The notes under the pieces were generated by a model. That model was not told the origin of the DNA. It did not search any database and worked only from the letters and a program-made list of their open reading frames with translations. Below, one piece after another: positions 5,251 to 39,900 of a DNA stretch of 64,000 bases (position 1 is the first letter of the stretch; each line of letters opens with the position of its first letter). Source of the stretch: Phoronis australis (Eukaryota; Animalia; Phoronida); assembly GCA_002633005.1 (NCBI GenBank), contig NMRA01000139.1, positions 558,001-622,000 of the forward strand, read 5' to 3'. A program made the translations under genes and the position numbers.

Positions 5251-5582
5251 ATTATCGGCGAGAAAAGTGATTTTCTGATACCAGCCTCAACGCAGAATCC
5301 AAACTGCAACCGCTGCGCTCGCAGTCCAGCGCTCTGCTGACGGAACAAATGTATACCCCACTCGATAAATGGCGCAGTATCTAAGCATAGTTTGTCTGCT
5401 AGTCACCGGGTTTGATTTCAGCGAATGTCTGACAGACAACCGTGAAATTGGCGATTTGTAATAAAACTTGACATAACACAAAAGATTTTCTTGTTTTATA
5501 ACTTTGATCAGAGCTAACAACTTTAAAAAAGCTATCCAGCACAACAGCACCAGAATGCGTTTTTGACCGCAAATGAAGATGT
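5251..5582 (+). repeat. Diverged interspersed repeat, copy 1 (copy 2 at 22463-22716)
   Basis: Collinear shared blocks ATTATCGGCGAGAAAAGT, TCAGCG.ATGTCTG.CAGACAAC, GCGATTTGTAA, TGTTTTATAACT.TG.TCA.AGCT and AATGCGTTT. Confidence 0.7.
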
Positions 5583-6905: not shown

Positions 6906-6975
6906 ATGTTGCATAACAGGACAGAGATTGGAGTTCTAGTCGGATTTTTTGTCGTCGCCTTTTTTGCCGGGCTGG
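6906..6975 (+). CDS. Alternative first exon 1a of nAChR: signal peptide MLHNRTEIGVLVGFFVVAFFAGL(G)
   Basis: ATG with A at -3, 23 codons + G, then donor GTAAGT at 6976. Phase 1 joins GA at 39283 to give GGA-CTG-GGT-AGC-GAT (GLGSD) in frame. Hydrophobic core present. Confidence 0.75.
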
Positions 6976-9900
6976 GTAAGTTACAATGTCGCTTCAGATT
7001 GTGTTTATAAGTTCAGATATCGTAGGCAAGGCAAACAATTTAAACATCTTTCATCTTTCAAGCTATGCATGCACAAAACGCATTCTTCGTGAATTTTTAT
7101 GGAGTGTATTTTGATTAGGTCTAAAGGTTTGCCTAAGATTCCCTACAGATGCAATTAGCAATGATATGATTAACAGGAATATGAATGCATCATGTTTACA
7201 GTTAATATCGTGTAGGAGTGCAATTGGTGATTAAAAACGGGCTTTCATGTATGATCTTATATTCTATTGCTGTTTTGCATTAAGTGTGGGAGAGTTTGCT
7301 TGTTTATTACAAACAGCGCTACTCCTAACATCCAACGCTAAGTACAATTAGCGATCCCAGTACACTGCCGTTGTTGAACTCTTCATAAATCCCAATGTCG
7401 TTTTGGCGAAAACGACAACATCTAAAAGACAACCTTAGGGTCTTACTCAATTACGTACAGTTATTCTAGAAGAATACACACACTACTAATTTGTAAATTA
7501 ACTATGTAACTCTTCAAATTCGATTGCTATGACGAGTCATTAGTCGTAGGGCCTTCGAGCTTGCTAGAGGTGGTAACTAGCCAATTTGGCCGGCGCATTT
7601 AACTTACGTTTGCGGTAAAGATATGTCTATAGAAGATTGCATTTAAACCTGCATCGTCGGTGGACATTCTCAGCGGTTTAATCCCTGGTGATGTCACCTG
7701 AACGGACTGACACGCTCGTGTAAAGACGACACATTGCGGCCAGGGGATGGTTACTACGTTGTGGCGGATAGGTCGGATTACCTACGACCATCGGAAGATT
7801 ATTGCTGAGAACGTAAACAACCAATTAACCTCACTTTCAACCACAGCACTTGTATATGGAGTTACCCGTAGAAAGACAATTATATTTCAAATACTGATCT
7901 TATTAAAAATCGATTAAACCATCAAATTTATTGTGTCAATTGCAATGCAATAAAACACTACCTTCGTGATTAATTAATCAACTTTACCCATTTTCAAAGA
8001 AATGTAGGGCCCACATCTCAACTGTCCTACCTTTCTTGTATGACACGGTCATATAGACTGACAAATCGAGATTAGCCTAATTATTTACACTAATATTTTT
8101 ACACCTGAAAATGATATGGATAGCCATTGATTCTTGCCATCCCCACTCATCCACGTGAGCCGAGCGTTCGGGCAACTAAGTACATTCAGTGAATTCGACC
8201 CTTCGACTGCAGCGCCCGAAGACGCTTTGCCAACCAAATAACACTCGTGTCAGAAAAGACACAGTGAGATGCATAGATTTTGATATCTTTTCCGACATTG
8301 ACGTATTACCAGTATCGCATACATTTGGCTTGCACAGACATCTTAACTGAGCTGCTTGGTGCTCTTACGCCGTTGCAAGTTTTACGGTTAATCAATTGGG
8401 TTAGTCACGAAGGTTGGCTATGAATCGAACACGTCATTGTTTAGCACTGTTTGAGGAAAAGTGAGTACACATTATGAAAACAGCGAAGACAAACATTTAT
8501 ATCGTCCAGTGCCACTGTACTTCGCACTAGAGAACAGGTTCCATATGCGTATAAGAACAACTCCAGAATAAAGGAGTATTCTGTGGTTGACTCTCTCAAC
8601 GAGCTTTGTTGATCATGCGAGTTTTCGATCACAGTGTTCGTTTTGCGCGATGTGATAACACGTCATGGGTGTTGCCATTTTTGAAGGTGACATAGTAAAG
8701 GCGTATTTAAACAATGAATGGAAGTCAAGTGTCATGCTAAATAATGACGTTACTCTCACAAGACAACCTCGCTCGAAAGATCGACCCCATTCTCCCCGAT
8801 TCAGAGATTTATTGCCGTTTGTATGCACGTGTAGTCACTTACACTTCACATTCACGGCCTACGGAGCGATTATCGCATGACACTTTTCTAGTTTGAATAA
8901 AACTTCACGACCTCCCACGAGAAATGACTTTACTACTGTCCCTTAGTTCGCTCACGTCAATACAGAGTACAGTTTTCTACTATGATGTATCGACTTTGAG
9001 ATGTCATAATACAGTTCTCATATGATATTGTGATATTTCGAAAATCATACGTGTTGACAGGTAGACATACAGGTGACGTTTCGCCTAACTTATGTCAGTC
9101 AGACTATCGCGTTGGCGATAATTAATGTCCATTCACCCACCACCGTCCGGTGCTGTACAGTAGTTCCGTGCTAAGTCTAATTACTAATTAAGAGAAAGAC
9201 AAACAGCGTGATGCAATAAAATCCTGCTATCTAAACGTTTACAGTATCGACAACTGCTTATAATTTGCCTTATTAGTGATAATGAAATCAATCGTATATT
9301 TAGTTGAAATAGGCAGTGATACACTATTAATCCGTCTAATACTTAAACGCATTGTGTGCGTGGTTTGGACTGCAGTTGGATTGACTGATCCACAACGCAT
9401 TGTTTGGATCCCTCGGGATATTTAATGTAGATGTATCACGGTCATTCATTGACAGCAATCTCGACAGCGAGAGGGATTGTGGATTTTAGCGAGTCACGTA
9501 CACGTTTATAGTAAAGTCTAATTACCCTGGATGGACTTTGAGATTGGGCGACTCCTTTGCTGCCAAAATTAATCTAGACAGCTTGGCTCCGATTATTAAA
9601 AAATGTCACCCGCAATAATACCGTTGTACATACGTATTCAAATATTACCGTGAATCCGAAAGTTGAGAGCAATTAAAGGCGACTGGAATAAAAGGAACAA
9701 CACGCGGGACGACAAAGCAGGTACGCGAGATTGATAAGCGAATAGTCTGCGTTCGGGAAAAACATGGTACTTCTTCCGGATTCTCTTACCATTCGCAGCT
9801 GTCTTGAATGACTCAAAGTCATAAACTGGTTAGTTTGTTTGAGGTAATTGAGATATTGACGGTCTAGAAATCTCCTTCTGCTTGGCGAAGTAAGTTATCG

Positions 9901-12900
9901 ACCGCTTAAACTCGATCACCTCATTTGGTAGAATTCTGAACAATAATAGAATCATAAAATCTGGAATAGGTAATTGAAGTTAATTTAATTAACGGCTTCA
10001 CCTGCTTAAGGGCTGCTGAGGTCGCTTGGCTTTTACTAATCCATGTGAAATTATCTTACGTTGTTACCACCTTTACCGACGTTAATATAAGTATTATTAG
10101 AATAAATACTTGGTAGCTGGCGTAATTTAACGGATTTTTGATTTCAAAAGTCACCCAGAGATTTGCGTGCTCATATGTTCGTTCACATGTGCGATGCACG
10201 TTTTGCGTTTCACTAGTTACCCAGCTATTCTGCACAATATCTCGAGTACACTGAGGTATTTGCGACCATTTGAATCAATAAAGAAAACATACAATGGGTT
10301 TTATGCGTACTAATATGTCTTAAAATTCAATCAGAACTTAACTAGGCGGATAATAAGCTTTTCATCACCTACCACACACTGTGGGTGTCCGCACAGGAAT
10401 TTGTTAGAACCGGCGTGAGTATATGTACAGGCCTACAAGGCGACATCTGCCCCAAACGATGAGTGCGGTATCCTGTGATGAAGACGATAGGGACTTGTTG
10501 ACAAGTCGGTGTATTAGACCAAATGTTAACAAAACTGTAGATTTTAACCCAGTACAAATGCATTTATTCTCTGAATGAAGAAAGCCTGTAGAACTTGATT
10601 TTAGACTCAATATCAATCTGCCAGTCATTGGATCACATGGCCTCGTATTTTTGAAGTTAGTAAAGTTTAGCACAAACAAAAGGTACATTGATCGCAAAAC
10701 AACTCTACCAACCACGCGACTAAATTTCATTTGATATAAAAATAGTTTCAGGAACGCTGCTAAATTATCACTTCGTTTTCGTTTTTGCAGCTTCGAGATG
10801 TTTCATGGAAATCATAAAAAAATATTTTTATAGCTCCTCATGAAAAGTGGAAGAAGTTAAAAACCATTCCGTAAAGTAAAGTGCATAAAGAATCCGAAGT
10901 TAATCGTTGGACATTTTCTAGGGTCCCACATAACAACACGAGACCACTTAATCATATGTACGGTCTTACACAGGGTGTTCCATCGAAACAGGAAACCCCG
11001 GTGAAAACAGACATCTCGGTTCGAAAACAGACTCCGCACTTTCAAAAAAGCTAACCATCCCGAAAAACACGAAGCCCAACCTTTGCAACAGTAATCCTGG
11101 GGATCGGACAGGACACTCCACCCGGTGACCGAAACACCACTTCCGCATTTCATGTCAAACTTTGATTGATGGAAAATAAATCGTCCTGTTTTAAATAGTT
11201 GTTGTGATATGTTGTTTTACTATATGTTGTTTTACTTATGACGGATTGGCGCTCTACGTTATTGTGCTGCTAAAGTTGTGGTGGGATCTCTTGCGTCGAC
11301 TTGCGGCGCCATGAAATATTGCGTCACCTATTGGCCAATTTCTTTTTTTTGTTTTTGAAAACATTTTTGGAGAAACTACTGAATAATCTGGAATTAACTA
11401 AATATTCACAGAGATAACAACGTGTTGAGAGTATAGGTTATGTTGAAATGCCCCCACAGACAAGTTGCAGTTTTACCGATAAAAATCAAATAACAAAGTC
11501 ATTATAATATAAGTTACGCTGTATTATTGAACATTTGTAACAAAAAGACATGAAGAAAACAACTGGAAATTACTTAAAAACCCTTTACTCAAAGCTTGAA
11601 GCTACTGACAACGGTCTCAGAAAATTGGAAAAATTTCCTGTCCAGTCATGGGGTTCTTGTTTTTAAGGTCAGGGTTTGTGTTTTTCGGGCTGGTTAGCTG
11701 TTTTGAAGGTGCGGGAGTCGGTTTTCTACTCCAAGATATCTGTTTTCACCGGGGCCCTGTTTCGATGGAGCACCCTGTATAAGACTGACCCCGCATAAGA
11801 TTAAGTGATCTCATGTTGTTATGTGGGACCCTAGAAAATGTCCAACGATTAATTTCGGAACGTTATACTTCAGAAATGAATGATCGCATTCAAACGAAAC
11901 ATACAGATACAATTCTTTGTGCACTTTACTCTAAACCGGTGAACGGAGTTGTTTTTAAATTGTTCCATTTTTCACGAGGAGTTTTATATCGGGATTCGTG
12001 TTTCGATGGATCACTTTGTTATAGAAAATTGGAAACTTGTGGATTTGGACTTTTGGATTTGCCAATCTGCCATTTATCGGGTCACGTGAGCAAACGTCTT
12101 CAGTAAAATTTATCATAAATAAAACACTTTCATGAAAACAAAACAACGGTTTCAATACGAGACCAAACTTTGTATGATATATGAAATCTCAAAAAAGCTT
12201 AAAATTTACTATTTTCTAAATGATCCTTTCATTTTCGTTTTAGGCAACTTGATTTTTTCACGAAAAATACAGAAGTTATATTTTGATTGTCCCTAATTCA
12301 AATGTGGAGCATTTTTAAACAATTCCTAACCTCTCGTTGGAGCACAATGCGGAAGGCATTGTATTAGGAGGTGTCATGTGAATTCGAAAAGCCATTTCCG
12401 AGATATGACGTTCAGAACTTATATATAAAAATTTGGACATTTTTCTAGGATCCTACATACATGTACATAACCTTAAGCTCATTATAGACATAAAACTGGA
12501 CGTGGCCGAATGCCACAGGCGTCTATGGGTCAAACGTTACTTCTGTAACGTTCACTCTGCTTGCTGTTCCTTGTCACCTGAATTTAACTGTGGTGATTTT
12601 GTCATCAGTTCAACATGTGGCAAACTTCAGAGTACTGGTGTTTGGTGCACACAAGCTTTATATTGACGGTTTATATCTATGATTCACGGTTGCGAAATCA
12701 TGAGTCCAAACCATTGGATCGAAGAATGCATGGCATATCAAGTCAGCACTGATTTATGAACAACGTTTTCTCTACTGCCTTGCTTACAACGTTTACCGTG
12801 TATCCTTTGAGACGACGTTATCAACGAAGAATTCAACAGTCGACATGTGTTTAAAAACACGGCTTTAAAATCTATCTATTTATTTCGCGGTAGTGCAGGT

Positions 12901-15900
12901 TACAAACTATCGTTTCATGCGAGATTATTTAGGATATGTAATGTTGCTGCTACAGAAGACAATTTCTAGCAGAACAAGTAGTATATTTTACAAACACATG
13001 CATATGTTGGATGACTCCCAGGCATGTGCTTAAGATCGGGTTTCATTCTTTTTAAGTGGGTCTCTGGCAATGCAAACACTGTTACTTTATCTTGTTTCAT
13101 TCCCATTCAATTAAGGTGTGTATTTATTTCAGATCAATAGATACCTTTGAAAGGTAAAAACTGAAGCTTTACTATCATTAGTATAAAGCGTTAGTCGTTA
13201 TTGTGTCAGATTGTAAGAACGTTTGTTTTTGAAGGTTCTAGAAAAGCTTTCGGCAACGACTTGGCCATTTGTGATACTGTTTTTACTGCTGAGATTTCTT
13301 GAGCGTGACTAGGCGCAAATATATAGCAGTAGTGACCAATGATTTTCCGTTTTGTTTATTGGATACGTCGAATTATACTTTTACTTATAACGCAAATATA
13401 AACCCTGACGCTGTGGTTTACTTTCATAACACTTGGAGTTTAGCAACTACACACCGCTTGTTATTATGTTTGTAGCCTACGTAAATGGAAGCGTGGCGAA
13501 TGTACGCGCAGGATGCAAAGTACTAAAAACGGAGGGGAGACATAAGTGTATTCACACTACGCCCCTCGATCGGCACGAAGTCAGGTCGCCCAGTTTCTCA
13601 CATAACTCTCCCACCTCATCGCCGCCATCATTGTCCTTTAAATCAAGTACAGGGTGCTTTACAAATGTCCTCATACTTCAGTACAGCATCGTTAGTTCAA
13701 ATTCAGTTCCCATGAATCTGACTCTGGGCTTGGGCTTGCGTAAACCGTCGCGTTCTCTGTATGCACGGGTATGGAAAACAAACGAAAATTTATCAAGCAA
13801 TTGCCACTGGAATTTCAAGAACGTGAAGAAAGTACAAGACAATTAATTTTCTTTTTCCATTACATTTATTCTGGTTTAAATACTTAATTCCAGCTTTGTT
13901 CACCTCTTTATAGATTTTAATCAGAAACCTTATTCAGAGTAAGCAACGTAGTTATGGTTGCCATTTGACATGTGAGTTCAATTTTGGGACACCCTGTATT
14001 CTCTCACCAGTCACCGATTCACTCCCCTCTCTTTAGCTCCATGCTGCTGACGTCACCACTCCCCCCATTTGCTAACAAACCAAAAGTAAGTGTTCAATCC
14101 AATAGAAAGAAATATTAAGTGAAGAGTCTTTTTCACTGATAAAATTCAAACATTTCTCTGTTTGTGACGGGCACGTGATCAATTGTTAGTCTGTCACAGA
14201 TGCTGTCTAGTAAAGTAACAATGACCCCGTCACGTCTTCTAATTAGACATCTCGTAGGAAACTTCTCATGGACATTGTGACATCTACATATCAAAAATAT
14301 ACCAGGACAACATCAGAGGGCAAGTACTGGGTAATGACTACGCGAAGAAACAAGGATGTCAGCAAAGTGTACGACCGGTCAAACATTTTGACTTCATAAT
14401 AGTGAATAACATCAAAACCGTTACAACGTGATTGATGGGAGCAGGATGCGTATTTTGGTATTTATTATGTGGGGGGGGGGGGNGGGGTAGAACATACATG
14501 TTAAACGAAACGGCTCTCGAGGATTGACAATGGTTATGATATCTGGGCTGAGTCACATATCAGAGTTCAGTAATGATTGCGCATGTGATATTCACCAGAA
14601 ATCGCATTTCTTTTAGTCACTGAAGTCAGATGGTTTGATATTAGTGCACGCTCTGACCGTTGAAATTAATCTTGTGGTCATATGAAACTACTAGAAAGAA
14701 CACGACTGCAGTCATGGTAGCGATGGCGGAAATACGGGGTTTTCATGCTGTGCTGATGAGGGCGATACAGTTTCTTTTCTTATAGGGAAACAAACAAAGA
14801 ATACGATGTTGATGCTGACATAGTTAACCAACAATGATGAAATGGTGACGATGATGACAATAGTAGCGGTAATGATGACAATATTGGCGGTGACAATGGT
14901 GAAGATGATGATAATCATCATAATGACGATAGTCATGATGACGATGACGCTTTTGTGACCACCACGGTGATTACGGTGATGGTAATGATGAGATGGTGGT
15001 GACTTTGATGACGATGATAACTGTGATGACAATGGTGACGTCATTCTAAGAAGTCATGACGATAATAGTGACAATGAAGGTGATAATGGATTGATGACGG
15101 TAATAAATGTTGTTGATGACCACGTCAATGACAAGGACTGGTTGTGTAGATGTTCAGACCAACAACCCGAAAATACGAATATCTCTGTCTTTTCCTAATC
15201 CTACCGGAGTCTGTTTGCGTTCAATCAATCTACAGTGGGTTGAAGTGGTTTTTACTTTCAGGCTTCGGAGTTTCGTGCATTCTTTTTGAAACACGTTCAT
15301 CAGAGTTACCTAAACCACGACCCACCACGAAGTGATCTTGTCAGCGTAATGTTGAACAACTACCGCACACAGACACGTTCTGTCATACGTCGCTGTCGTT
15401 TTCAATACTGGGAGTCGTTTAACGTGTTCAAAGGCGGATTTGGGTATTCTGTAGTCGCCCTCTTGCTGACAACTCGTACTGTTAGACGGTAGTGATGAAA
15501 AAAAAAATCGTCTGCTGAGATGGAGACACATCGTTGCTAAGGCAAGGGTTTGAAATGCAATCAGTGACAAATAACATGCGATTGAAAACGCTCAGGAAAA
15601 GACCGGGCCGACGCCAACACGTAATTTTTTTATACGAATTCGGCACTCAGTTACCTGTAGTCAGAGGAGACTGATGAACGCAACTTTCAAGGCGTTTCTA
15701 TTTTTGATAGCGGAATTAGCGTTTTTGTTTAGTCTACTTACAGAAGATACAAGCATCCGAATGAAGAAAACACAAAACAGACATAGAAAATAAAATGTGA
15801 GAAATTCAATTGCGCATATTTGAGTTAAAGTCTAAAATCTGTGATTTAAACTACTATAGAGGTGTTGCTAAGCCAGTCTTTAGCCCGGCGTCGGTGAAAA

Positions 15901-18900
15901 AATGTCTGAACATCTGCAAGTCATTTTTATGAATCAATATCTAGTCAAATAAGCAGGTGAAGGGTGGTTCATATATTAACCCTGTATAAACGGCCTACAA
16001 ATGAACTGCTTTCGCAAATACTGGAAATCTCACGCGCTCGCCTCAGGCGAGGAATCCACCTACTACTGACAACCAATTTGCATGCGATACTATTGATTCC
16101 GTCTTCCGTTTAACCAATTTGGAAACAGTGCAGTTTTACTTTCGCTAACGGCCTGTGTGCGTAATGTTGATGGTAGAAATTAGTGGAGATTACGTAAGGT
16201 TAACTAATAATCGGTAGACAAACTGCCACGAGCAAAAACGACTACATGGAAAATAGCAACATCCTGAAGTATCCATTGGAGGGCGCTACAATCACCGTTC
16301 ACATGTCACAAAATCCCACAAGTCGCCGGAACGACGTTTGTTTGTTATTTGTAGGCAAAATCGAAAAAAGATCGGTCATGTTCGACTCAAGGAGAGTGTA
16401 ACTATTAAGGCAACGGTGGAGAGGTTCACTAAGCTAACGGAGTCGTAAGCTTGGTTGCAATATCATTTGACACTGCGAAACTTAATGGCAACCGCGTAGC
16501 CAACGAAAATGTTCGTGTTATGTCTTAGCTGAAATCGTTGTATCCCACACTACTTTCCGGAATTTGTCAGGCCGAAAACATGAAATCACTGAAGTAGCGT
16601 ATCAACACCACATCACAGCAAGAAGAAAACCTCAACAGTCCCGGCAGTAGGGGACGGTTCTCTTTTGATGAATAATGCGTATCCATAGTTACGGTTTCTT
16701 AACGCTTTCATTGTTTTGGCTTCTACAGTTTTAAACGCGCGCCATGAAGTATGTTCCGGTGTCAAAGCGATTTCTATTTCCCTGCACAATGACGTGGAAA
16801 ACCGGCATGAAGTCTTAAAAACACCCAGCAATTCCTGTTGTGACGTAACAGATTAGCACTATGACGGCAAGGGAAGAGGGACCAAAATCCGCCTTCATTC
16901 TTGTCCCGCAAAATGTAAACTTGTTACAATAGAACGCTCGAACTTCCCCCCGACGGCCACGCTGTACAGCGACTGTCGCCAGCCCGCCGTGACAAGCAAA
17001 TTTAATGGACCTGAAGCTAAGTCGAACTGGCAGCTCTTTTTAAGCCTAAAACAGTTCTAAACTGAGTAAGGAAACACAATAAGACCAACTGTGTGTAGTT
17101 TAATGATCTAAATCAAAAGGTGGTTTATTGCTGTAACATCGGTTTCGTGTAAAGGTTAAATGAGTTGCACTCACGGCGTCCTCTGCTCCATGGAGGAATC
17201 ACCGGCCCGAAGTGAAAACGTATTCTAATGTAGTCAAAAAGCTACTTTAACCTGAGTCGTCTAGCTGCAGGGAATGTAGACTCATGCAAAATTGTCACTT
17301 ACTGTGCAACGTGTACCTGTTACAGTGAACATTACATTTTGAAGCACAGAATTAATTATAATCCTTTCTTGGTATTATCTTTCAACTAATTTTCCCCGCG
17401 AATTCTCTTGCTATGCGTGATAAACGCCTTCTGTTTTTCGTTTTCCAATCGGTCTTTCTATAAATTCCAAGTTTTCTTCATTTTTTTCCTTTACAACAAT
17501 GATTTTCTTCGTTTTCTCACACCTCTCGTTCCCCATATGCATCATCTAAAGCTGAACCTCTTCCGACACATTTTTGCACACACCAATTTGTTTTTTATTT
17601 TCTTCCATTTTCATTCTCCCTCACTACGTCACATCCGTTCTTTCGCTGACCACGCCTTCTTAGTTAATTACTCCGATTGTCTTTCCCTTTTAAAATTCTG
17701 GTTGTTTTATTAACTTTCGTTCCCAGACACCTCTCTGCTCGTCTTACAGCGGTCTGTCTAACCTCTATACATTAGATCATCAGAGCCTCGTTTTGTCCAG
17801 TCACGTGCATTGTTACTTCCTCTTCTGTGTTTCACGTTTTTTTGAAACTTCACCTACCCTTACAATTATTTCAACTCCTCTCTACCCTTTTTACCTACAT
17901 AGTTTCATCGCCGCTGTTCAGTTTTGCTAGATGATGGTTTTTGTTTAATCTGATTTTTTGGTTAACTAAAATATCTAAATTTCTTTTTTCTTTCGAAGTA
18001 GCTGGAACCATTTGTGCTAATTGCACTAAATATTCCAAGGGAGGCAATCGACCTCTCACACGTTCCGCAACACTGTTTTAGTTTTGCAAACTGCTGTCCA
18101 TGTCTCATGGCCCTCTTCTTCTGAACTCAGTCCTTCTGTCATAAACCGCAGCTTGTTTACGGTCTTCATGAGGCACGACGGTCGCGTGCTGTGCACAACG
18201 TGTCTTTGAGCTTATGCGATTTGCTGCAAAAGCGTCTAAGAAGTGCATCACATGAGAAGAACTGGAGTTCGCGTGCAAGAAAATAACTGCAAATAACGCC
18301 AACGCGGTCCGTAAGGAACTCAGATTGTCCATCAGTTGTAGAGTACCACATCATTTCTTAAAAGTGTCCCCAAGGCATCTGATAATCCTTTCTGTCTAGA
18401 CAATTTGCTCACTGAAATTGTCACAAGTTGTTAGCCTTGTTTGGCTAACATCAATAACCGTACTTTGTAAACACCTATCAATTGTGGTATCAGACCACCT
18501 ACCCTTCAGTCGCATCCAAGCCATTTGAATACGCATAAAATCTGGAATCGCGTGCATTATCGAATTTATGAGCGAAACACGTTCAGCGCGAGCATGCGTA
18601 GTTTTCATGTATGCCAACCGGATGTCAATTTGCAGTAGTACTGTATTAGAATCGCCGAGAGGCATAATACCAGATGATTAAAATTATTTAAAGGTACATC
18701 ATTGTAATACTTTAGTTGATAAGCCATGCATATTTGTATAAAACTAACGTATGTTGATGGCTATCAGTACAGCATGTAAATATATTGAAATCTACATGTA
18801 CACTTAACAACATACAAGCACAACATTACTCAGTTGCCTAGAATACTTGGGCACAGGATCTAATCTCTGAACACGGTTTCGACTAGCACATTATTGTAGC

Positions 18901-21900
18901 ACAAATTTGTAAATTTTCTCGAAGCGTATCGTGGAATTGGTCAAATTTTCGTGCAGGGTTTTCAGTTCCTGGCTTTGGACTAAAGTCTTATAGTGTTGCT
19001 ATAACAGGACATGCTCAATTCTCGTATAAGAACGACGGACATTGTTTATTGAATTATAGGTGAAAGCATTAGCTATGATTTTCTTATAAGAGAACCATTT
19101 CCAATCGCATATATTATTGTAGCACAAATCCCATCGATCATTTATAAAGGTTCCACGAACCGCCAGGGCAATAAAAATATTTGTCGGACGTTTGATTTAG
19201 AAAATATTTTGTTTTCTTCAGATATTGATTGAAATATCACGTTTGATTAATCTCTTCGAAGGTTTAAACGATGTTTACGGTTAAAGCATGTAACGTAATT
19301 AAGACACCGTTCTTTGTTTTCTTGTTTGTTTGTTGTTGTTACTATCATGCGTTGCTAAACGTCCAGCTTATCTTGTGTAGAAATCATTTGAAGAATAACA
19401 GAACTGAATGAGATCTTGAGTTAGTAAGTGCGCCTTTAGAAATATCAAACAGCATCTTAGACAAATTACACAAAAGACACGTGTCCAAGTGCAGATTCCG
19501 GACAGGAGTGTTATTTTTGTAGGGTTTCAATAATATTTTATAGACTTAAAGCAAGTCATTATGCAGGCTTCGACAATTGTTAGGAGTTGTTTTGCAATGT
19601 TGAAAATAGCCTCGCTCCGGCCGCCAAGCACGCAGTCCGCATCGGAGCTGACTATCCAGTTTGCCATTTACAATCGCATTTTAAAAACTTCTTAATTGAC
19701 CAAGCATATGATATAGGACCAGAACCCTTAAGTGTGTACATTGTCAGACGCTTTGCACTTTTGCTGATGTAAGATTTAATTATTTTCAGAAATATATGTG
19801 TGGAGCGTAAGAACAAATTTTTCACTTTTGAATTTTGAAGTAACTTTTCATGAAAAACACCCCTGGTCTGTGAAATTTCAGTTCACACAGTTTTAGAAAT
19901 ATATAACGGTAAATAGAGAACGAGAAATTATGCGTAACACGTTCCTACGTATTGGAACTTTCCACACAAGATGGCGTCGTTATATTTTGAATCTAACATT
20001 TCCGATTGAAAACACAGCCTACCACTGCGTCAGGCTTTGCTGCAGCTTGTGACCTAGGAACTGATTCCCTCAAAAATACTCAAAAGGCAGTGAACAGAAT
20101 TTACACTTTGTTTTACATTATTACCAGTTGAAGGTAATCGATATTTCCCAAGATTCGATCGCCTGTTGTAGTAAGATAACGCTCCTCCGGGACATTCCTG
20201 TTTCTTGATTATCAGCAAGCAGACGCCTGGCCATCGTCTTCGCGGTTGTTCCACTACAGAATCTGACGCATGTCAGCGTATGCACACAATGGGCTTGTAC
20301 TTTCTTACTGGTCATCGTTTTCGCGAAATCTCGTTGGAGAAACAGCCTTGAAAGGGTCATTCGGATGCAACCTCGTCCCCAAGCCTCAAGATGACGCTGA
20401 TCAGTTTAGCCATTTAAGGCTTTGTTATGGAAAGTAATATGTTAGAATTCTGACACATTTTTACGGAAATCGCCGGAATATCACGAGTAATATAAAGTTA
20501 TATCAACTTTGCAACTTTGAAAATTTCTTCAGTATATTATAAAAATGTAAACTAACGGTATATTGCAGCAATTTAGGTCTAAATTATTGCAAAAAATATG
20601 TACTTAGATTCGAAAACAGATTAATTTCTATGATACTAGTAATAAAAAAAGAATTGGAAATAAGTCCGCCAACAAAGGCCATTTCAAACAATAACAAAAC
20701 AATGCGTTATGCTTCATGAATGGCAGCAACAACGCTTGTGAAAGTAATTTGTTTTAATAACGTCAAGGCAGTGGCCAATCATTGCGAAAACAATAATTCC
20801 CATAACCAAGCCTCAAGTGGCTAAACCGATCAGCGCCATCTTGAGGCTTGGGGACGAGGCTGATTCGGAAGCTCGATTTCCGGAAGAAGTAAATGGCAAC
20901 GACGGTTTTCAGAGTCACTCGAGATTTTGGAAAGAACAGTGAGCACAATGCTAGGTGGCACACGTATGGATATCTATCTCATCCAGCACATGATAGGAAG
21001 CTATAGCAAAACAATATAAACAGTAATCGTCATCACGAGCACTTTTGCTGCTCCTCGTAATGTCTCTCACTCACTCAGCACGCGCTTTTGAGAATACCAA
21101 CTTGCGCATTGGTACAAATAGCGCAGATGAAGTCGCCTAATTTTTCGCAGATTTGGACCAAAATCTAAAACTGAAAAAGATCAACGGTAAATTGAAACTG
21201 CGTCGAATCTCCCGTGAGGGCCATGAACTCTGCAATGAACGATCACGAAAAAACAGACGGTTTAAACTTAACTGTCTTATTTCCACATCAATTCACACGC
21301 TACCTGTTGTAACCATATGCAGGTATCAAAGCGATCATTTGTAGCATATAAATAATAACTAGACATTAGCAATAATCGCTCTATGCTATAATTTGAACAC
21401 TGTTGTAATATTTTCTTTGATATTGTCGCCACGTATGTTTGGTCGGTGAACATTTTGACAGCGCGTGAGATTTCACACCACCTGTCCGTCCATTAGTCAG
21501 TATTTGCTATAGGAACAGGAGACATGATTATAAACGGAGAGTCATGTTTTACACAGGTGTCCGTAATCTGCATTATCTATTATCTCTCTCGGTGGGGGTT
21601 TAGGCAAACACGGTACATTCATCGCTCCCCCTGCCATTGTCGAAAGCTGTTTTCTTTTTCACAAAGGAGAACTCGGGTATGGAGACTGAGTTGCCTGAAA
21701 AATTGACGGTGAAAATTGAAAGTTTTGATTGTGGTTGACACATAACTTTGAAAACGCGAATGTTTTCTTTGAATCAAACCACCATTGGTAAATTTGTTTT
21801 GCATGTTAATTATACAGGTGAAAGTGTGTTTGCTTTGTCATGAGAGATGTCATCAGTGGGTCAAGTGGGGGCGGTACAGTAAACGAGACTGTGGGAATTT

Positions 21901-24900
21901 CTCTAAACATTCGTTGCAACATCGCTATGGTTCTTCTGCGAGATAAGGAACAAGACTTTTTTCCGAATTCCAATGGCCTCCAATTGCTACACAGTGAGAA
22001 TTCGCTTGAGATCTTTACGATTTCCCAATGCCGATTTCCACATAAATTTATGCAACAAAATGGCGCCTTTGTTGCACTTCCACTGATCAGTTGGTAAACA
22101 CGCAAGTGGTCTCTTGGTCTGAAGACCGATTTACGTCTCCAATTTATGTAGATTTAAAACACGCAGAGAAGGTATATGCTCTCACAAAGGCAAAATTACT
22201 CCAAAATTGTCGCACCATTTTTTCAAAATTGTGAGCTTTTCTGACTCATAGGTTGTCACACAACTTGTCAATGTAAAAACGTTAGTATTAACAACGCTGT
22301 GGCGGTGTAAATCCGGCACCTACTTCTGTACCCAGTGATATGTGTCTTCATTTGAGACTTTGCAGACACCAAGCGCCAAGAGCAGCATTGGTTGTCTTTT
22401 TAATGATCATCGCTATCAATATTTGTAGTTTTGGTAAGGTCAATTTCTTTATGTGAAAAGAAATTATCGGCGAGAAAAGTAAATTTCTGAAGTCAGCCTA
22501 AACCTCCGGAAGCGACCACGCGACAGAGTATTTTAAGCGTATTTAACTGGCAAAGTCACAGACCTTGATCTCAGCGGATGTCTGGCAGACAACTGGAAGA
22601 ATTAGCGATTTGTAACAGAATCGCAAAAAATGTTTTATAACTCTGGTCAAAGCTCGTAACGCCAAGACATCTATCCTATCCGACAATAATGCGTTTCTTC
22701 GGCCGTAAAACTGATCACTCATTTTCATAATGATATTCGTGCACGTTTGTTAAACTGTGCTCGTGACTGCTCACACTTGTACAGAATGTATTTGTTGTCA
22801 GAGCATGTTCGTTTCTTAAATGAGTTAGAACACTCCATTGGGGGGGATAGAATACTATTATGGCTCTTCACCCATTTTCTTTTGGAAAGAAAAATACAAA
22901 ACTAGTTGATCGAGCCTTTTCTTCCGCCAACAGAACTGCATTTCCTGTCAATGAATTGGAGGACCAAGTAGACAGTCGTTATAGAATTAATTTGTGCCCG
23001 TGTACTTGTATATAAAGTGGAACTTCAGTGTGACCTGTTACCGAAAACGATTGGAACAGGTGCGACGTTGCGAACATGCCCCACATTCCTCGCAGCCAAC
23101 GCTACATATGTTTGTATATACTTAATCATATCTTCCAGAAGTTTCACAAACGAGTTTTGCGAAAAGTATAAGCAAAGTGGCAGCCATGGAAATATATGCG
23201 TTTTGTCTTTTGCTGCTATACGTGGAACAAGCTAAACAACAACGGTTCCAAACGTTAAGATACATTCTTCGCAATCTTGCCTGACGAGTGAACCCCCTCT
23301 CAGCTGCTATGGATTGATGAACGGAAATGCTTTGAAGTTTACCTGAAATGCAAGATGAGATTCTGTAATTGCAAGTATCATCAGTCATTAAATATTTACG
23401 GAGTGCCGGCGTGCGACGCTGAAGTACACACACACTGTATTATTAGAATTACTGTTTTTGAGTTTAAACGTTGTTGCAGTATTAAAGAAGCTCATATAGC
23501 CAAGACCAAGCCAACAGGGGGTGCGGGGGTGCGGGGGGGGGTAAACGTGATGGTCAGACTAAGTAAAGAAACGTAACAATCGTCAAATTGAGTCGCTGGA
23601 GCCGGGCCATGTAAGGCTTCGAAGCCACTGATCAATCAATGCCAGCAGAAATACAAGTTTCCTTCTAAACAATTTACGTTATTACCACGTAGTTTACTCA
23701 GTTACATGCACATTCATGTGTGGTCGCTATATCGCCAGATAATTTGAAAGAAGTCGATTCAATATCGCCATGTGCAATTCGAGCTAAATCCATGCTAAGT
23801 CAAATCGAGTTAGCCTTTCCTTAAACTAATTGGGCGATATGTAGTTAACGGTAAATGGCTAGTCTAACCTTTCTGCAATCACAACTGATGGTAATTAAAT
23901 TGATGTATATATTATCCGGGTTCCAGATGAGATATCTTTGTTTGCCTATGCTGAAGCGCCACCACGGTGCGAGATGAGACTTGATCAAATCGACCATGCT
24001 CGGAGTGATTAAACGCAAACTCAATAGATGGTGTCGTGGGTTGCGTTTTCCACCACGCTCGTGAATGATTTGATTTCTGTTCCGAGTAAACTTCAGTTGT
24101 ATACTCCAGAACACTGAGCATTCTGAAGAGTACTGCAATTGCAGCTTTATTCAAAACACCTCTGAACGGCACAGCTTATGACCTCCGGGTCGAAATACTC
24201 AACTGTACATATCTATTTAAGTTCTTGAAATTAATTTCTTCACCATAACCTCAACTTTAAAACAATCGCAGCCTGACTAGTTTAAAGTCAAGTTAGAACG
24301 AGCCGTGAATGACCTGATCCAGGAAAAATACACATTGCCCAGAACAGTGTGCTCCGCCCGACAGTGGGTCACTGCTGCCCATCGATTTTGTATGGGCTTT
24401 GTGATTTTTAGATTTCGTGATGATCCTAAATGCACGACACCACGGTTTTGTCCACTATTGTGAATATTTAAGTAGGTGGAGTAGGCAAACCAATTGTTTG
24501 TTTCCAATATAAGTGGCCAGAAGAGTATGACCTTTTAATATCACTATTTTGTCAAAAGATTTCGTTTGGATTGTTGGAAGGTTTGAATTATGCTACTCCC
24601 GAAAAAATGATGATTGACAAGCACTCGCTTTTATTTCTGGCAACAAGTACCCTCAATTTTTGAGCACATTGAAATTGCCCACGGTGTCGGAAAATCATGA
24701 AGTCCACCCCAGGGCCAGTATATATATTTTTGTTAGCCTCGTTGCGAATAAAAAGGAGATAGCTTATCACGATTGATCCTATCGTCGATCACCAGGAATA
24801 TCAGCCGAAAATCCAGGCATAAAAGCCAATTCCATGATGAACAAAGCGAAAGTTCCTCTGTCCAAACAACGCAGCAGCAGTAAAATTTCGAAGGCGAAAA

Positions 24901-30900: not shown

Positions 30901-33900
30901 ATTTAAATTTGTGGTAATCCACTGTTACTTTAAGATATTATCTACTTTCATGTCACTACCTTGATGACTCACTTTTGATTATCCACAGTGACAAGATGTG
31001 ATCATTGAATCTCTGTGTAGAAGAGTAAAATATCTAATTGGTTAAAAAACGTGTGCAAACTGGCAAGTTGATCGCTTCAAACACACATACCGATGGCATG
31101 CTCTATTCGTAGTCTATGAATCCCATGCTTCGCGTAATCAAGGTATCTGCACGTCAAATCAATACCTGTTGGGTCACAGGCCCGTGATTTTTTGTCTAAA
31201 AGTTATCGATTTTGACAGAAACACAGTTCCTTATTCATCGACGTTACTGTGGCTAGTTTTCAATGCGTTTCCTATGTGCTTTATTCAGTAGCGTGTAAAG
31301 ACATGAATACGCGTATTCAGTTGACTTTGTGATTGTTGTTGGCAAATTGCGCATGCGCGACTGGATCATCGATGAATGAGTGCCTTACGCGATCTAGTGA
31401 TTTCTAACAGTCATGGATGTTAGATTGATAATACGTATACTGTGAAACCATGAGACATGCGTTGTCGTTTGGAGTGTACAGGTTTGTCGTTGCTACTGCT
31501 GTTTTTAGGAGAACTGGTCATATCGTTTGCTAGTCTGCAACGTGGTAAGTAGACTCAAATTTCTGAGTTAATTTTCAATGCTTCCAATGAATGCTCTATT
31601 GAGTCTCTGCTGTTGTAACACATGAAAACACGTTGATACATATGACGTTGATGTATGCATACCTCATTAAAAATCGTTTGACAATCATTTTGACCTGAAG
31701 TTATTTTACGTGTTTAATGTCACATAGCAGTGGCAACAAACGCTGTATAATGACAACTTGTCTAGACCGTAATGTCCGTAAATGTTTCCTATGTCAAGTC
31801 AACTAAACGTTCAAAGAACTTCGATCCATTTATGGAATAGTAATTTAATGAGATGGCAGAGGTGTAGTACTAACTTCATGCCGTTGCTGTGTGCGTGACA
31901 CATCCTAAGTGGTCGGCGTTCTGTTGTGCAAAAACACCGTGCACCAGTGGGAAGCGCTCCATAGTAAACGGATCATATTTCTCTAATGTCTTCGTCGCTC
32001 AGTGGATTTTTCTCCGCGGTAGCTGCCGTAGAATTGGCGAGGACGGGGTGACGAGCAACTAGGCATAGTCGGGGAGAGGTTGGCATTCCAAAATCAAAAA
32101 CTTAATACCCCTTGGGCGTAAATAAATTTGACACGAATCACATTTCACCCAGTCTGGCGATTTAGTTCTAATATTTGCGAAAACAACTGCATTTTCTATC
32201 AATTCGGCAGTATAATCATGGATAGCAGATTGGCATAACATTTGGATAGACGTCAGTAAACTGAGCAACTCACCACTCATCAGGCGATTCCATCCATTTA
32301 ATAACATGAAACTTGACCGTAAGCATTAAAAATAAAAAAAAACAATGTTTTCCGTACGCAATCAACGTGACTCGTCTACTAGCCTTAATGAAGCAAACGG
32401 CGTCATTCGGCCGGGAATTGCTTTGCGAAGGGATAAGCCAATGACGTCTATTTTTTGTACGTGATTTCAATAGCCAGGAATAAAATCAAAAACAAAGCTG
32501 TTTAGACTGACGAATTCTTACTTAATTGACCTGAATTGGTGTGTCTGTCACTTGACTAATTGCGAACTACTTAAAGGAACTTTTCTGGCACTCAAACACC
32601 TCAGGTCGCTTGGAATCTTTCTTCTAAACATTTTGAATGTCAAAAGGATAGTACTCAGTCAAATAACGTGAACGTGGAGCCACTGCTGTTACGAGGCTCA
32701 CAACTCGATATTAACAAGCTTAGTGGCAATCAAATTAGGGATGATCGATCATAGAGCATACTTCCAAGCGAGCACTTGCTCGCACATACGTGGCCCCTAG
32801 CTCCAAAGGGCTTTAACCTGTCTTACTACATCATAGATTGCTTCGATTTATTGAGCAAACAAATTATAGACGATTTTTCAACTCAAATGTCTTCGTACGT
32901 CTCTTCCCCGTGATTACTACAGTGAAAACACCATACTCGGCTCAGCGGCGGAGAACGCGTGCACAGATCCGTGATTCAAAATTGCTCACCTATCTTCCAC
33001 GTTTTTATACTGTTCGTCCTGGGTCATTTGATTCACCGAGATTATATGATGATGGAAGATAAAACTTTATTTGCTGTTTTGATCTCTGGCGTTTGCAAAA
33101 GACTACACACAGGAATGCACACATTTTCAATCAAGTTCACCATGTGTAATCGGCTTAATACCATTACTACATTTTCTTGCGTGGTCGCCATCAGACGAAT
33201 CTACATGTAAGAAGGCGTGTATGCAAATTGCTCGCTTAATACTCTGGACGCTCAGCCACTGATTCCATCAACGACTCGCGATTCCTCATTTTACCTCCGT
33301 ACTTAAGAATATGCGATGTCGCAGTAATAACAATTTTATAGGGCCAGTAATTTCCGACACGCGATGTCGAGTTTAGCTGATATTAGGCGGACGAAGCACG
33401 TCCTACACATTGTGTTCTTCTGTCAAGGGCAGGAATGCGCTGCTTCATTACAAATAACTTCTGCACCGCTTAGTAACTCGCATGCTGTTCACAGTATGTT
33501 GATGTCAAACAAAAAACTCGCGTGTAAAATAAACACGGGTTTTTATTATTCAATGGCATTTTGTGCACAGTCGGACCACTGATCTGTTTGGGAATGCGGC
33601 TTCAACAAATAACATTCAGGTTAATACTGAAGTGTACCGCAGGTCATTCATATAAATATTTTCTTTATTTTGTAAGTTCTCGGTTCGTATTTCCAGTTTT
33701 GCACACTATAAGCGAGTGTTGGTTGGGGACGTTTGCGTTGGGAACTGGCAAAACTTTAACGCTCGCTGAAAATTATCGATGTTTACACTCGGGACTCCCG
33801 GATTTTCGTGACTTAAATTCAATATGACTGGAGGCACAGGCACCATTTTGTTTTGGATGTGACTAAAATTGGGATTTTGGGAGGTTTAACAATAGATCAA

Positions 33901-36900
33901 TCACCAATGATTTTGAAACCATTAGCATTAGATGAGCAAATTGAAATACACCAGTAAAATTTCGAGACCAAAACATGGTTTATTGAGGCTCTGTATGTAC
34001 CATCTTGTGAAATAGTCTGAAATTACTTTCAACTGCCTATGTCTGCCAGCCTCTGGTATCGCGGTCTATGGTTTCTGTTTTTTCGTCTTACCGTGTGTTT
34101 TTCCGGTGGTATTTCGCTGTGTGTTTATTCAACGAGGATATCCTCAGTTAATGAATTTTGCTAGAACCCACCGTCTTGTGAATACAAACAAGACGAACAT
34201 GTTACACGAGTTAAGGATAGACAGCTCAAAATAAGCAATCACGTTTTATATCTATATCTGTCGGTGTTTTTCTAACAATGACAAAGTCTGAACATGGCTT
34301 GCACCATTATAAGCGAGGCATCTGCAAGTTTTTTTGAAACTAAATCAACCTTGTAAGAACTTCGGGGCTCCCTATGTAGAATTTGATAAAAATACGAGTA
34401 TGCGTGTTCAATAAAGCGAACGAAATCTACAGTGGGTGTGACAGACTACACGTATGTCAGCACCATGATACACACGACAGCACGACGACCGTCCATCAGC
34501 GCGCAAATTACCACGTCACGATACGCCACGTATTACTAGTCTGCAAATGAACGTAACAGCAAAAACACTACAATGTGCGCCAAAAAAGAGGAAAATCGCA
34601 GTACTTAATCGGTCTGTGAATATTTGCTCACGTAGTGTTCTAGTTTCAATTAGTAATAATCCATACAAACACTTGCAACAGCCGATGGGCACATGAACAC
34701 GATGTACAGGTAATGCAACAAACCTCGATAATTATGCCACCGAAATTCTATTACCATTTGCAGGCATAAGTCGCGCGCTCAAAATTAGACTAAATCGTCA
34801 CTGAAATCCTATGCAACTGTATTTACGTGTTACGTAAGGACAGTTCTCGTAATTCCATTTGTCTGTTACCCAACGTTATTTATTGGATGCGTGAGATGTA
34901 ACACCGGCGATGAGTGTACTAGTATTGGTGGCTTTACGTTCGATAAACTCTAACCTTTGTCTATTATTTCGTAGATGTTCTATTATTTAATGTAAATCGC
35001 TTATACTGTCAAACTGTTGTTAAATGCAGTTCCAATACACTGAATATAAACTGGGCAGTACTCATACAGCCTTGTATTTCTCCTATTGCCCATATCTATT
35101 ATGTGACAGTTGTATGAATTGAGGCTCGTTAAAACAAACTCCTTGAGATTACGTTAGAGCTGTTTAACCAACGGTTCTATCAAACACCAAGTGGATAGTC
35201 ACGGATTTACGTGCATTACAATGTAAGAATCTTTTCATATTAAGAAAATGAAGTTTTTGAAGAGGAATTTAATTTTTAACAGAATTGTTTGACCGTGTTG
35301 GTGCTTATAAAGTAGCCAAACACGAATGGGATGTAACATTGATAACGATTTATTTTTTTGTGATCCGTTGTTTGAACGTACTTTCTCATGTCCATTAAAT
35401 TGGTGATTCTGCGCATATCGATTGGTGATACATATTATTGACGATTGAGTGCTTGGGTGATTTCATGCGAAAAGTCATGTGTACGATATTTCGTTAAATT
35501 GAACTCACGACTAGAGGTGGCGTTATTGTCGATTATAGAGCGCCATGACGAACAGTTATTACTCTGCGATGATACTCCAAACGATCATTATCATATCTAC
35601 TGACAATTTCTCTTATTGCCGGATACGATCACCACCAAGTGCCAATGCTTTAGAAAAAAACCAGAGAAGTTCAAATCGTACTGGTGGAAGCGCCATCGTT
35701 AGGGAAGAAGGAGTCGAGTCGTTGAACCTTCAACCCAGACGCAGGTCCTCGATCATGACCTGGGCTATATTTCTCAAAGAATCTATAACCAAAAATTGAT
35801 TTTTTGCCTCCTGGCTTAGGCTTTAGTCTCCTACCGAGCAGGCTACGGATGTCTACGGTTTGTAGACAGACTTTCTGACTTTTAGTCCTAGCCTGGTTTC
35901 ATGAAACACGATAATAATCTGAAGACTGATTTTAGTCAAACGACAAAAGACAATAGACTCTTTGAAAGGCAGTACCAGAGGTGACCGACTGCCAAACTCA
36001 ATGGTGAAGACGTTTTAAATTTGACGAGGAAATTTTGAATCTATTATTATTTTTTTAATAGTTATGTGTATTACACTCATGCGCGCTCCCAGGGGGGTGG
36101 GGGCTCGGGGGCTTTGAACGAGCCCCCATTTGGTGAAGTGGGCAAAAAGGTCCTCCCCCGAAAGACAAAAAGTCCGAGAAAATGGGACTAAGCCCACTAA
36201 ATAAGCGCAAACGCGCAATTCACAGTCCTTTTTCGTTTTTTTATTTTTTAGTCCGCCGGCTCTTTTGTTAGCAAAAGGTCCACAACATCAAAGATTCGAT
36301 ATTGAAGGCTGGGTGCACGGCGCCGCCAAACACATTTCCAGTATATTAACCCCAAGCACTGGAACTTACGATGCCATTGCATCTCTCATTCACATTATTG
36401 ACTTAAAATGTTTCCGGTACTCACAACACTTTATCATAAAACGAAAATGAAATACATTAAAGAAATGCATAACCAATTGAAATTTAGACCACTATGATCG
36501 CCTCGAACATTAGTAGCAAAACTGCCGCCGCTGCCGCCGTCACGCCGACTACCATCACCAACAACACAACCGTTAGTATCATCACACCCACCACCGCCTC
36601 ATGAATACCTCTATCACCACCAACTCCTCCACCACCACCGTCATACGTTATTTCTCACCACCTTCATCATCGCACCTTTGCAATCCTCCAAAACCGTTTT
36701 GTCTCCAAGGGATTATGAAAACGGCCAAGTGCTCTGAGGGAGTTATTCACGAAGCTACAAAATAAGAGGGGTTGTGATTCTGTCCTCTAACTCGTGACGA
36801 GGACCTGGGGTACCTAAACTGGATTTTCACACATTAAAAATGTTAAAAAAATGTTGGATACTGCAGGGATATATCAATTTCCGAGATCCGTCTACTTAAA

Positions 36901-39900
36901 GAGGCAACAGACGTCATCATCCGATTTCATAAAGATGTTTTAACAAAACCAGGTTAAACACGTAAACCTGGTCGTCCTAACCTGGTTTACAATGTAATTT
37001 TAGGCGTAACATGATTTCACCAACCTGGCTTAAAAGTCTGAAAGCCTGGATTTTCTACAGCAACCCAGGTTGAAATTATTCAAAGCACCCTTCTGCGTCG
37101 AGCTGGATTGATTGACGTTAAAAAAGAAACGCTTGGAGTGCTTCATTGGAACCGTGATCACATGGGTTTCAATGACAGCGTACAGTTGGTAGAACCAGTG
37201 CAGACGTACATTTTCTGGTGTCTTTGATATCAACAAAATGAGTAGAAAAAGTACGGAAAACTTTTCTCATAAAGAAAAAGGTTTCCTCGCAGAACTGATT
37301 ACAGAAAAATCGATGTCATAGGGAACAAGATTATGATTCTCTGTTATTGTCTGTTATGTCTTTCGGAGTCAGTTTTTGAGGACTGTGTTGTCGTAAAATT
37401 AAAGTTTGCGTCGGCGACACACGCCACGACGTCTTTCAGCTGCACTGTTGAGCACATGTATATCGCGCAAGTAAGCCACCTAAGTTCAACAGTGTTAAAG
37501 CTGGGTCTGACAAGATCTAAAGTTAAACCTGGTTTAAGGTCTTAGTGCATGCTTAAGAAACTTAGATCACGGTGGTGAAATGAAAAGAGTCTTCGACCAG
37601 GTTTAAACTGGAGTTAGGCCTAAACCAGGTTTTACTAATCCACTGGTCTAAAAGTTAAACCACCTTTATGAAATGAGGATTGTCTTTAAACCTGGTCTAA
37701 GTCCACTTTAAACCGGGCTTAACTTTAAAACCACCTTTATGAAATCGGCTGCATGTGTCCAGTGTTAACTTTCGTCATTGGTGTGCGGAAGTCTATTCGT
37801 ACGCATGCTCAATCATGTGCATACAACCTCGTAGAGTACACAAAAACGTCAGCATGTATGTGTATTTTGTGGATCGCCATGACTGTGACGGCGGACAACG
37901 ATGAGTTTTCTTTAATGCTTTTCAAATGTCGGTGCTACTGAAGAAAGGTCCGTCTTTTTAATATCTGAATAGATTGAGATTCAAAAAGTTCACCATCAAG
38001 CAAGGAGGCTTTTGTTGAATAGGGGTAGTGTTCATTTCACACGAGCACCACCTAGTGGTTTTCGGGACGCCCATTGTGAATACAAACAACCTATTACTGC
38101 AACACATTGATCTCCGACAAGAGAAATGCTTCAGTTCAAAGAGGCACCCTCGCACCCAAATGAGCTTATCAAAAAGAGCATTTTTTATGATAAAGTTACA
38201 ACATTAAAAATCCTCGATGTTTTAACTACAACATAGTTAACATGGCAGTTTACCGTCACGTGATATTACATTCTCGGTTTTTTAGAGACGAGTGACATTT
38301 AACAATAAGTAGATGACATTTTTTGCTCTGAACTTGAACGGTCTTGGTTATCTTTGGCTTAGCGACTCCTCCCCCAGTCGCGTTATTTCTGCGTCACGCA
38401 CAGCTATACGTTTATCCAGTGCAGATCGTCATCACATCGAATTGTAATTGATTAATTGTCATGTTCTATTTATTTGGAAAAGTGCCAGCTATCCATTTCA
38501 CTCACCGTGCACACCTGGCTGGACCATTAAGTCCTCGTCATTTCTGTTAAACTTTAATTATAACCTAAACTAACGCATTATGACGTAATCATTTTGGCCA
38601 CCGTCTTGTCAAAGGTGCACAGTCTTGTCTTACGACTTAACAAGAAACCACCCTCTGCAATAGCTAGGCCACCTAACAAAATGTTTTCAGCAGCTATTTG
38701 AATAATTGATTTCATAACCCATTTAGTAGACAATGGTGCATCTTAGACATGTTGTGGTCGAACGCCATGATCATTGATCGAGAAGATCGATTCCATGACG
38801 TTTTCGAATGTTAAGGATATTTGGCGGGGCAAAGTCATATTGAGATACTAACTACTGAAGATAGCAAGGTCTTCACCGCTTCTAGATTCGCTTTATGGAG
38901 TTTTAGAGCTCGAAAATCGCGTTTGAGTAAATCCTCCAACGATAAAATCGAGCGAAGACTAGATGACTTTGGAGAATTATTCACGACAGATTGAGGACAC
39001 TGCGTGAATTACGCGGAGTGATATAGAAGAAAAGCAATCAAACATGGCTGAGCTCGCTGACCATATGTTGCTAGTTCGCGCATAATCCCTATTAACATTT
39101 CTGGGTTTATCAACATCTGAGAATGGATCACATGTTTTACGCTGGAACACAGTCCGAATAATGTATTTTACCATCCATCGATTATGTTATCGAGGACGAA
39201 AGGAGGCCTATAACGATGGGGACTGGGATGGGGTATCTGTCGCTTTGTCTTGGCTTATGCCTCTGTGTTCTCTCCGCTTCAGGACTGGGTAGCGATGACG
39301 AAAGACGCCTACTCGAATACCTCTTTACGTCTCAAGGATACAATCCCCTGATCAGGCCAGTGAGGAACCTCAACGAGACAATCAAAGTGGATTTTGGACT
39401 CGCCCTCGTGGTGCTAATCAGCTTGGTAAGTCGCATTGTTTTTGCACTAGAGCTGAAATAGTTCCATTAAAACATGCATTCGTCCCACTTAAGTAATACA
39501 CGGAGCTTTTAAAAGGTGCATCAAATTGTATTTGTAAACCATTAACTCGTGGTGCTTAATAAGACAAACTAGTCGATAGCAGGTGCCTTCAAATGTGCTT
39601 CAAACGTAATTTTACCACACTGCTGTTGTCAAAAGTAATTTGAAATCGTGCGTGTAGATTTCATAGGATTTACTGTAGGAACTAACCACCACTTTAGCTC
39701 GTAAAGGAAAAGTAACTATTGGTTTCATGATTGAAACGTACACGCCCTTTCGTATTGCAAGATTTGTTGTATAAGCAATGATAGCTTTCTGGTGTGATGT
39801 TCTTTTAAAGGGCATTTAAGCCTGGCGATTTCACATGTTGTACCTCTTTGAGGCACATAAGATAATACTCATTGAAATCACTTCGCCAATGTACTAAAAA

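Follow-up and report, generated by a model that had tools for sequence, protein, structure and literature searches.

The window analysed here, 64,000 nucleotides (nt) of Phoronis australis DNA, holds a spiralian gene for a beta1-type (type J, non-alpha) nicotinic acetylcholine receptor (nAChR) subunit. Two or more unrelated signal-peptide (leader) exons of this gene are spliced to one shared body beginning at position 39283. Any of the leaders followed by the five body exons gives an uninterrupted protein of 505–514 amino acids (aa), and this is the only nAChR body in the window. Exon 5 matches both Neur_chan_LBD (Pfam PF02931, E 2.6e-33) and Neur_chan_memb (PF02932, E 4.7e-53), contains the 13-residue Cys-loop and lacks vicinal cysteines in its loop C stretch, as expected of a non-alpha subunit; exon 2 gives a weak PF02931 match (E 2e-4, under the curated cut-off). 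Across the best 120 matches of exon 5, identity ranges from 46 to 68%, and the named proteins among them are nearly all beta-like 1. A quick IQ-TREE analysis of 55 proteins placed the gene within a 52-row beta1 clade (Shimodaira–Hasegawa-like approximate likelihood-ratio test, SH-aLRT, 100; spiralian side 84), with five further proteins as its sister group (support 99) and outside the annelid, mollusc, Lingula, Lineus and flatworm groups.

Upstream of this body, the original prediction had placed three mini-exons of phase 1, each with a GTAAG donor and fitting the acceptor at 39283 in frame, and all three (E1, E2 and E3 in the table) bear this out. They are alike in starting at an ATG with a purine at −3, in encoding a hydrophobic core and in ending at a G|GTAAG donor; joined to 39283 they give proteins of 506, 514 and 512 aa, respectively, in which the sole stop is terminal. 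Each variable exon carries the ATG, the hydrophobic core and the opening base of a glycine codon; splicing across a phase-1 intron then adds the shared exon, from which GLG and the rest of the protein come. E2 has the most hydrophobic core of the set, and E3 carries a short polar tail behind its core. A possible fourth leader, L4, would begin at an in-frame ATG whose open frame runs straight into 39283. The four leaders are mutually unrelated (six pairs, best shuffle p 0.04; no DNA match under E 0.2). A short upstream open reading frame (ORF) that begins 7 nt before the start codon of E3 may affect translation of that leader.

Table. Features of the nAChR locus, in window coordinates
Feature	Position	Strand	Description
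E1, variable leader exon, coding part	6906..6975	+	70 nt, 23 aa + G, phase 1; spliced reads
E2, candidate variable leader exon	22340..22433	+	94 nt, 31 aa + G, phase 1; predicted from sequence
Upstream ORF	31450..31533	+	27 aa, out of frame with E3
E3, variable leader exon	31457..31544	+	88 nt, 29 aa + G, phase 1; spliced reads
Sense-strand read cluster	~32800..33206	+	ends near a strong donor; ATG frame out of phase with exon 2
L4, possible fourth leader	39216..39282	+	22 aa + G, contiguous with shared exon; ambiguous
Shared exon 2	39283..39425	+	end of signal peptide (GLG), helix alpha1, start of ligand-binding domain
Shared exon 3	45735..45779	+	loose read ends behind 39426 agree; homology
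Shared exon 4	50277..50386	+	AG/GT ends, open frame, homology
Shared exon 5	50993..51974	+	982 nt; Cys-loop, loop C, transmembrane helices (TM) 1–3, intracellular loop
Shared exon 6, coding part	52555..52725	+	TM4 and stop; AG acceptor, open frame, homology

When positions 1–39282 were scanned with untuned settings (GT[AG]AG donor, phase 1, hydropathy at least 2.0), three candidates were returned, with none on the opposite strand and 0.43 expected by chance. Markov simulations reached three candidates in 4 of 300 runs under these settings and in 30 of 300 with looser donors; stricter settings, fitted after the fact, lower the chance expectation to 0.01. Taken by itself, the sequence is suggestive of a leader array, short of decisive.

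RNA reads connect two of the leaders to the body. We used three raw-read runs (X2, X3 and X4), all from one study and carrying the same species label, of each of which 18–19% was read; bases 1–20000 lay outside the read-mapped stretch. The contigs of X1 do not cover the exons and were left aside. Shared exon 2 is covered by reads in all three runs and is spliced onward to 45735 in 8, 9 and 33 reads (X2, X3 and X4, respectively). The junction 6975^39283 is supported by 30 X4 reads and 5 X3 reads, the loose read ends before 39282 matching the 3' end of E1 with an agreement of 1.0, and no such ends were among the rows listed for X2. The junction 31544^39283 (GT..AG) was found in X3 (five reads with five starts) and X2 (one read), with none in X4; at 97% likeness, the counts are four reads in X3 and one in X2. 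Read counts for E1 and E3 are 30:0 in X4 vs 5:4 in X3 (Fisher p 0.0015), so use of the two leaders differs between samples. For both exons, the junction reads rule out that they belong to another gene. Weak-donor phase-1 candidates from relaxed scans of the DNA (for example 11648–11708 and 15150–15234) are unsupported, because the loose ends that enter exon 2 from outside 31183–40182 in X3 and X4 are all those of E1.

Our reading, in which we have good confidence, is that a single body, entered at 39283, receives at least two unrelated signal-peptide exons (at 6906 and 31457) whose use varies from one RNA sample to another and which likely have promoters of their own, with the exon at 22340 a likely third leader and the ATG at 39216 a possible fourth. 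A locus with variable leaders and a constant body is supported by the raw reads, which show two junctions, by the presence of a single body in the window and by isoform models of orthologues that have this layout too. The count of at least four leaders given by the original prediction has to be divided: E1 and E3 have junction reads, E2 is likely and L4 uncertain.

The same layout recurs among relatives, for which the clusters of 20 entries, non-arthropod and mixed, were looked up; the relatives' data are automatic annotations seen without genomic exon layout. With GLG-S as the joining point, unrelated leaders precede a body that is 100% identical between isoforms in Lineus longissimus (three; XP_064648336/343/352), Pecten maximus (three; XP_033749952-954), Mizuhopecten (two; XP_021371674/675), Argopecten (two; XP_069138103/104), Lingula (two; XP_013406813/814) and Octopus bimaculoides (two; XP_014767961 and XP_052828180), and another cephalopod, from Logan assemblies, has two unrelated leaders on an identical body. 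The variable-leader layout is apparently common to orthologues in the three phyla named here (molluscs, brachiopods and nemerteans), and the premise that nAChR genes normally have a single leader exon fails for this orthologue group in spiralians. Of 60 spiralian-type entries, 50 have GLG and 10 have GLN as the triplet before the mature start, and 36 different triplets occur in 117 arthropod-type entries, these sets being redundant, pattern-selected and without gastropods and some bivalves. Dreissena and Elysia have two differing N-termini each, in which the motif is not kept; those of the two Dreissena models reach into the start of helix alpha1.

The original prediction also held that cleavage falls in the shared exon and that the mature receptor would be identical whichever leader is used. 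Residue 2 of the solved mature human beta2 and muscle beta chains aligns to the Asp after GLG-S, which places the canonical cut within the shared exon. We scored cleavage with a rough weight matrix that found the canonical site in 8 of 10 arthropod controls. Top scores were 6.3 for E1, 3.0 for E2, 7.0 for E3 and 9.1 for L4, with the best predicted cut at 0, −2, −9 and −5 residues from the canonical site, which came second for E3 and close behind for L4. With its top site directly after GLG, E1 would likely yield the same mature receptor as the canonical one. For E3 the score is 7.0 at −9 vs 5.1 at the canonical site, and the predicted cut lies within the variable exon, which makes an identical mature receptor doubtful. 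Earlier cuts are also predicted among the relatives: in 14 of 23 of their leaders the best site lies at least five residues early. Moreover, cephalopod isoforms carry optional inserts of 9 or 33 residues between leader and GLG, of which the 9-residue insert, present on nine Logan contigs, would lengthen the mature N-terminus. Such differences could matter, because inserted N-terminal residues change receptor surface expression: residues placed near the N-terminus alter that of alpha4, beta2 and beta4 receptors, according to part of one article (PMC4786271).

Several observations weigh against our reading. The tally for E1 rests on loose ends and that for E3 on joints, which may differ in how readily they are detected, and the tissue, stage and individual of the RNA runs are unstated, so that the difference between samples is not tied to any of these. 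No pile-up of read starts of the kind that marks transcription start is seen in X2–X4 at this depth, which bears on the promoters: a start site of its own is seen for none of these exons, and their description as first exons is a probable one. The cleavage matrix missed the canonical site in two of the ten arthropod controls. Finally, none of the four window leaders has a significant match to the leaders of relatives (96 comparisons, best p 0.006). A likeness of E3 to the leader of Owenia or of Lingula isoform X1, seen by eye, was rejected by shuffling; a protein search with 39216–39425 against longer proteins yielded, among 169 candidates, no close relative in which E2 or L4 might be compared, a weak negative; and two loci of 66% GC content from a metagenome scan, where the match lies inside an unrelated long ORF, are chance matches.

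The lack of matches between the window leaders and those of relatives speaks for the leaders being neutral by-products of promoter turnover, where a new promoter needs a hydrophobic phase-1 exon and the choice of leader has no effect of its own. Also in keeping with neutrality, a single full-length leader is found in the entries of Owenia, Hirudo, Lymnaea, Aplysia, Priapulus and unionid mussels. The entries of Ylistrum, O. vulgaris and Argonauta and most Mytilus models likewise show one full-length leader; many of all these relatives are represented by single entries. On the other hand, two parallel lineages of leaders are kept in cephalopods, where the types of octopus and of the other cephalopod align with z 8.6 and 6.7, and in scallops, where two types recur across three species. 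A tailed leader also aligns between a cephalopod and Priapulus (z 5.6, equalled by none of 300 shuffles, in a set of 276 comparisons), and N-terminal insertions change the surface expression of vertebrate nicotinic receptors (PMC4786271). We regard neutrality as a serious possibility that falls somewhat short of even.

Another alternative concerns the count: only the exons at 6906 and 31457 would be real, with 22340 a decayed exon or a chance likeness of one and 39216 part of an acceptor tract whose translation is hydrophobic by accident. The core of our reading would stand, with fewer leaders. As regards E2, the junction 22433^39283 that the original prediction implied is absent from the joints listed for the three runs, sense depth in the bin 22002–22668 is 0.05, 0 and 0, and the untuned scan leads one to expect 0.43 look-alikes per 39 kb by chance. 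Against this, E2 passes the same strict settings as the confirmed exons, under which 0.01 are expected (fitted afterwards), it has the strongest core, and Lineus and Pecten have three leaders each. We conclude that E2 is probably real.

For L4 the evidence is more divided. Sense depth over 38983–39282 is 4.05 in X3, 0.11 in X4 and 0 in X2; four bins upstream of 38983 have depths of 0.2–1.0 in X3, so that L4 coverage there is 4-fold over neighbouring intron bins, and X4 is three times deeper than X3 on exon 2, yet its L4 coverage is nearly nil. The L4 region, which is also the acceptor region of the intron before 39283, is GC-rich for an intron end (54% vs 24–43% in the 67 nt that close each of the other four introns), and L4 has A at −3, G at +4 and a good signal-peptide score. 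However, the spliced reads that enter exon 2 in X3 (9–10) already balance those that leave it (9), and X3 holds scattered intronic reads as well as a similar cluster near 33 kb (depth 3.02 in the bin 32983–33282, X3 only; none among the listed joints). This cluster may represent nascent intron reads, or else a non-coding first exon that is joined to an acceptor lying before ATG 39216. A second N-terminus, rich in Phe and resembling intron read-through, is present in four Drosophila models, and these isoform-B models indicate that an in-frame acceptor region can mimic a leader. Because of the similar cluster and the balance of spliced reads we leave L4 as ambiguous, evenly poised between leader and intron end. 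That both E2 and L4 are spurious seems to us unlikely, if not by a wide measure.

Least probable is an arrangement with one promoter and a shared non-coding first exon farther upstream, the leaders being mutually exclusive internal exons picked by splicing: it would fit the lack of a visible start site, where only 30 letters of each loose end are visible and the read mapping leaves out bases 1–20000 and the region upstream of the window, but X2 reads (depth 1.0 over 31183–31482) extend well upstream of the start codon of E3, none entering E3 from upstream are among the listed joints and loose ends (at low depth), and alternative promoters usually take the form seen here, with exons that are unrelated, have an ATG each and are scattered over 25 kb (PMC1885805).

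Returning to the reading with variable leader exons, we infer a separate promoter for each. Transcription would begin just upstream of one variable exon, and the donor of that exon would be spliced to the only acceptor in use (39283), skipping any leaders downstream, so that several programmes, specific to a cell type or a stage, could each drive one single-copy structural subunit. Where the core lies directly against GLG (6906 and 22340), the leader is predicted to be cut at the canonical site or at most two residues off, and leaders with a polar tail (31457 and many of the relatives') may be cut inside the variable exon, leaving up to ~10 extra residues before helix alpha1; ligand-binding loops and pore are the same in all forms. 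It is conceivable, though we think it rather unlikely, that a switchable leader array in the spiralian beta1 gene predates the mollusc/brachiopod/nemertean split and combines two classes: flush leaders, for which the cut falls at GLG, and old tailed leaders, which can be traced as far as a priapulid and in which an early cut would leave 5–10 residues ahead of helix alpha1. Promoter choice would then set the mature N-terminus, and hence pentamer assembly or the choice of alpha partner, and the near-invariant GLG would reflect the constraint of serving several leaders.

Elsewhere in the window, inverted-repeat arms at 40879–41008 and 42894–43020 (84% over 130 nt) flank broken minus-strand ORFs, and 40879–43020, within intron 2, resembles a decayed DNA transposon; three ORFs tested within it gave no Pfam match. 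Two further inverted-repeat pairs lie at 10834–11981 and 20360–20870. The stretches at 20.4–20.9 kb and 36.1–37.7 kb attract many partial RNA reads from elsewhere and are therefore taken to be dispersed repeats. Pfam searches with 11 other ORFs of the window gave no match better than E 0.02. Gene-fragment matches from many other assemblies start at the same point of the 982-nt exon 5. In Lingula, isoforms X1–X6 of the orthologue share an identical front (the equivalent of exons 2–4) and have five different 3' bodies, mutually 50–71% identical, that span the Cys-loop, loop C and the four TM helices. If these models are right, Lingula would have a variable-3'-cassette array that would change pharmacology; unlike them, the window gene has a single 3' cassette.

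Our full-text searches, which covered few subscription journals, brought up no article in which an nAChR has alternative signal-peptide exons, nor any describing the alternative-leader isoforms of relatives, and the main text of a lophotrochozoan nAChR survey (PMC6896357) has no occurrence of 'alternative', 'signal peptide', 'isoform' or 'promoter'. In searchable papers, invertebrate nAChR diversity is a matter of gene-family expansion, internal exon switching and RNA editing, to which the present locus adds a 5' layer on a beta1-type subunit. Several leaders for one gene across several spiralian phyla apparently sit in automatic annotations, undescribed in the literature searched. With such an arrangement, one structural subunit could serve different cell types; it also allows a direct test of whether N-terminal extensions that occur naturally tune the assembly of Cys-loop receptors, a question addressed so far by means of artificial tags and deletions. 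Whoever clones or expresses the subunit of molluscs or worms must, in practice, decide on a leader.

Among relatives of the gene, arthropod nAChR beta1 and Lymnaea nAChR type J belong to the same orthologue group, as judged by a non-alpha loop C, ~52% identity over exon 5, placement in the quick tree and the type J label of the Lymnaea protein. Arthropod beta1 differs in having one leader per multi-isoform set outside Drosophila: the leader is identical in all six such sets with full N-termini (ten clusters, at most 15 listed members per cluster, 42 proteins inspected), several arthropod models beginning at an internal Met. In the silkworm, part of one report (PMC2045683) places the alternative exons of nAChRs only inside the body. 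The isoforms of spiralian orthologues share the GLG-S join and have two or three unrelated leaders, without detectable homology to those of the window.

Alternative signal-peptide exons as a principle are already known, including in the same superfamily. UGT1A, GCNT2 and the clustered protocadherins resemble the present locus in having tandem variable 5' exons spliced to common constant exons, as set out in part of PMC1885805. Their variable exons are duplicated paralogues that encode whole domains, whereas those here are 70–94 nt long, mutually unrelated and encode a leader only (22–31 aa), which is not a cluster of the UGT1A or protocadherin type. Like the gene described here, the human GABA-A receptor beta3 gene (GABRB3) encodes a Cys-loop subunit and has alternative first exons, 1 and 1A, with dissimilar signal peptides; PMC1934366 and PMC4082499 report that their use varies by stage and brain region, and that GABRA2 and GABRA5 have alternative first exons as well. 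GABRB3 differs in having two such exons in a vertebrate anion channel, whereas here two to four are spread over 32 kb before a nicotinic subunit, in a layout found in several phyla.

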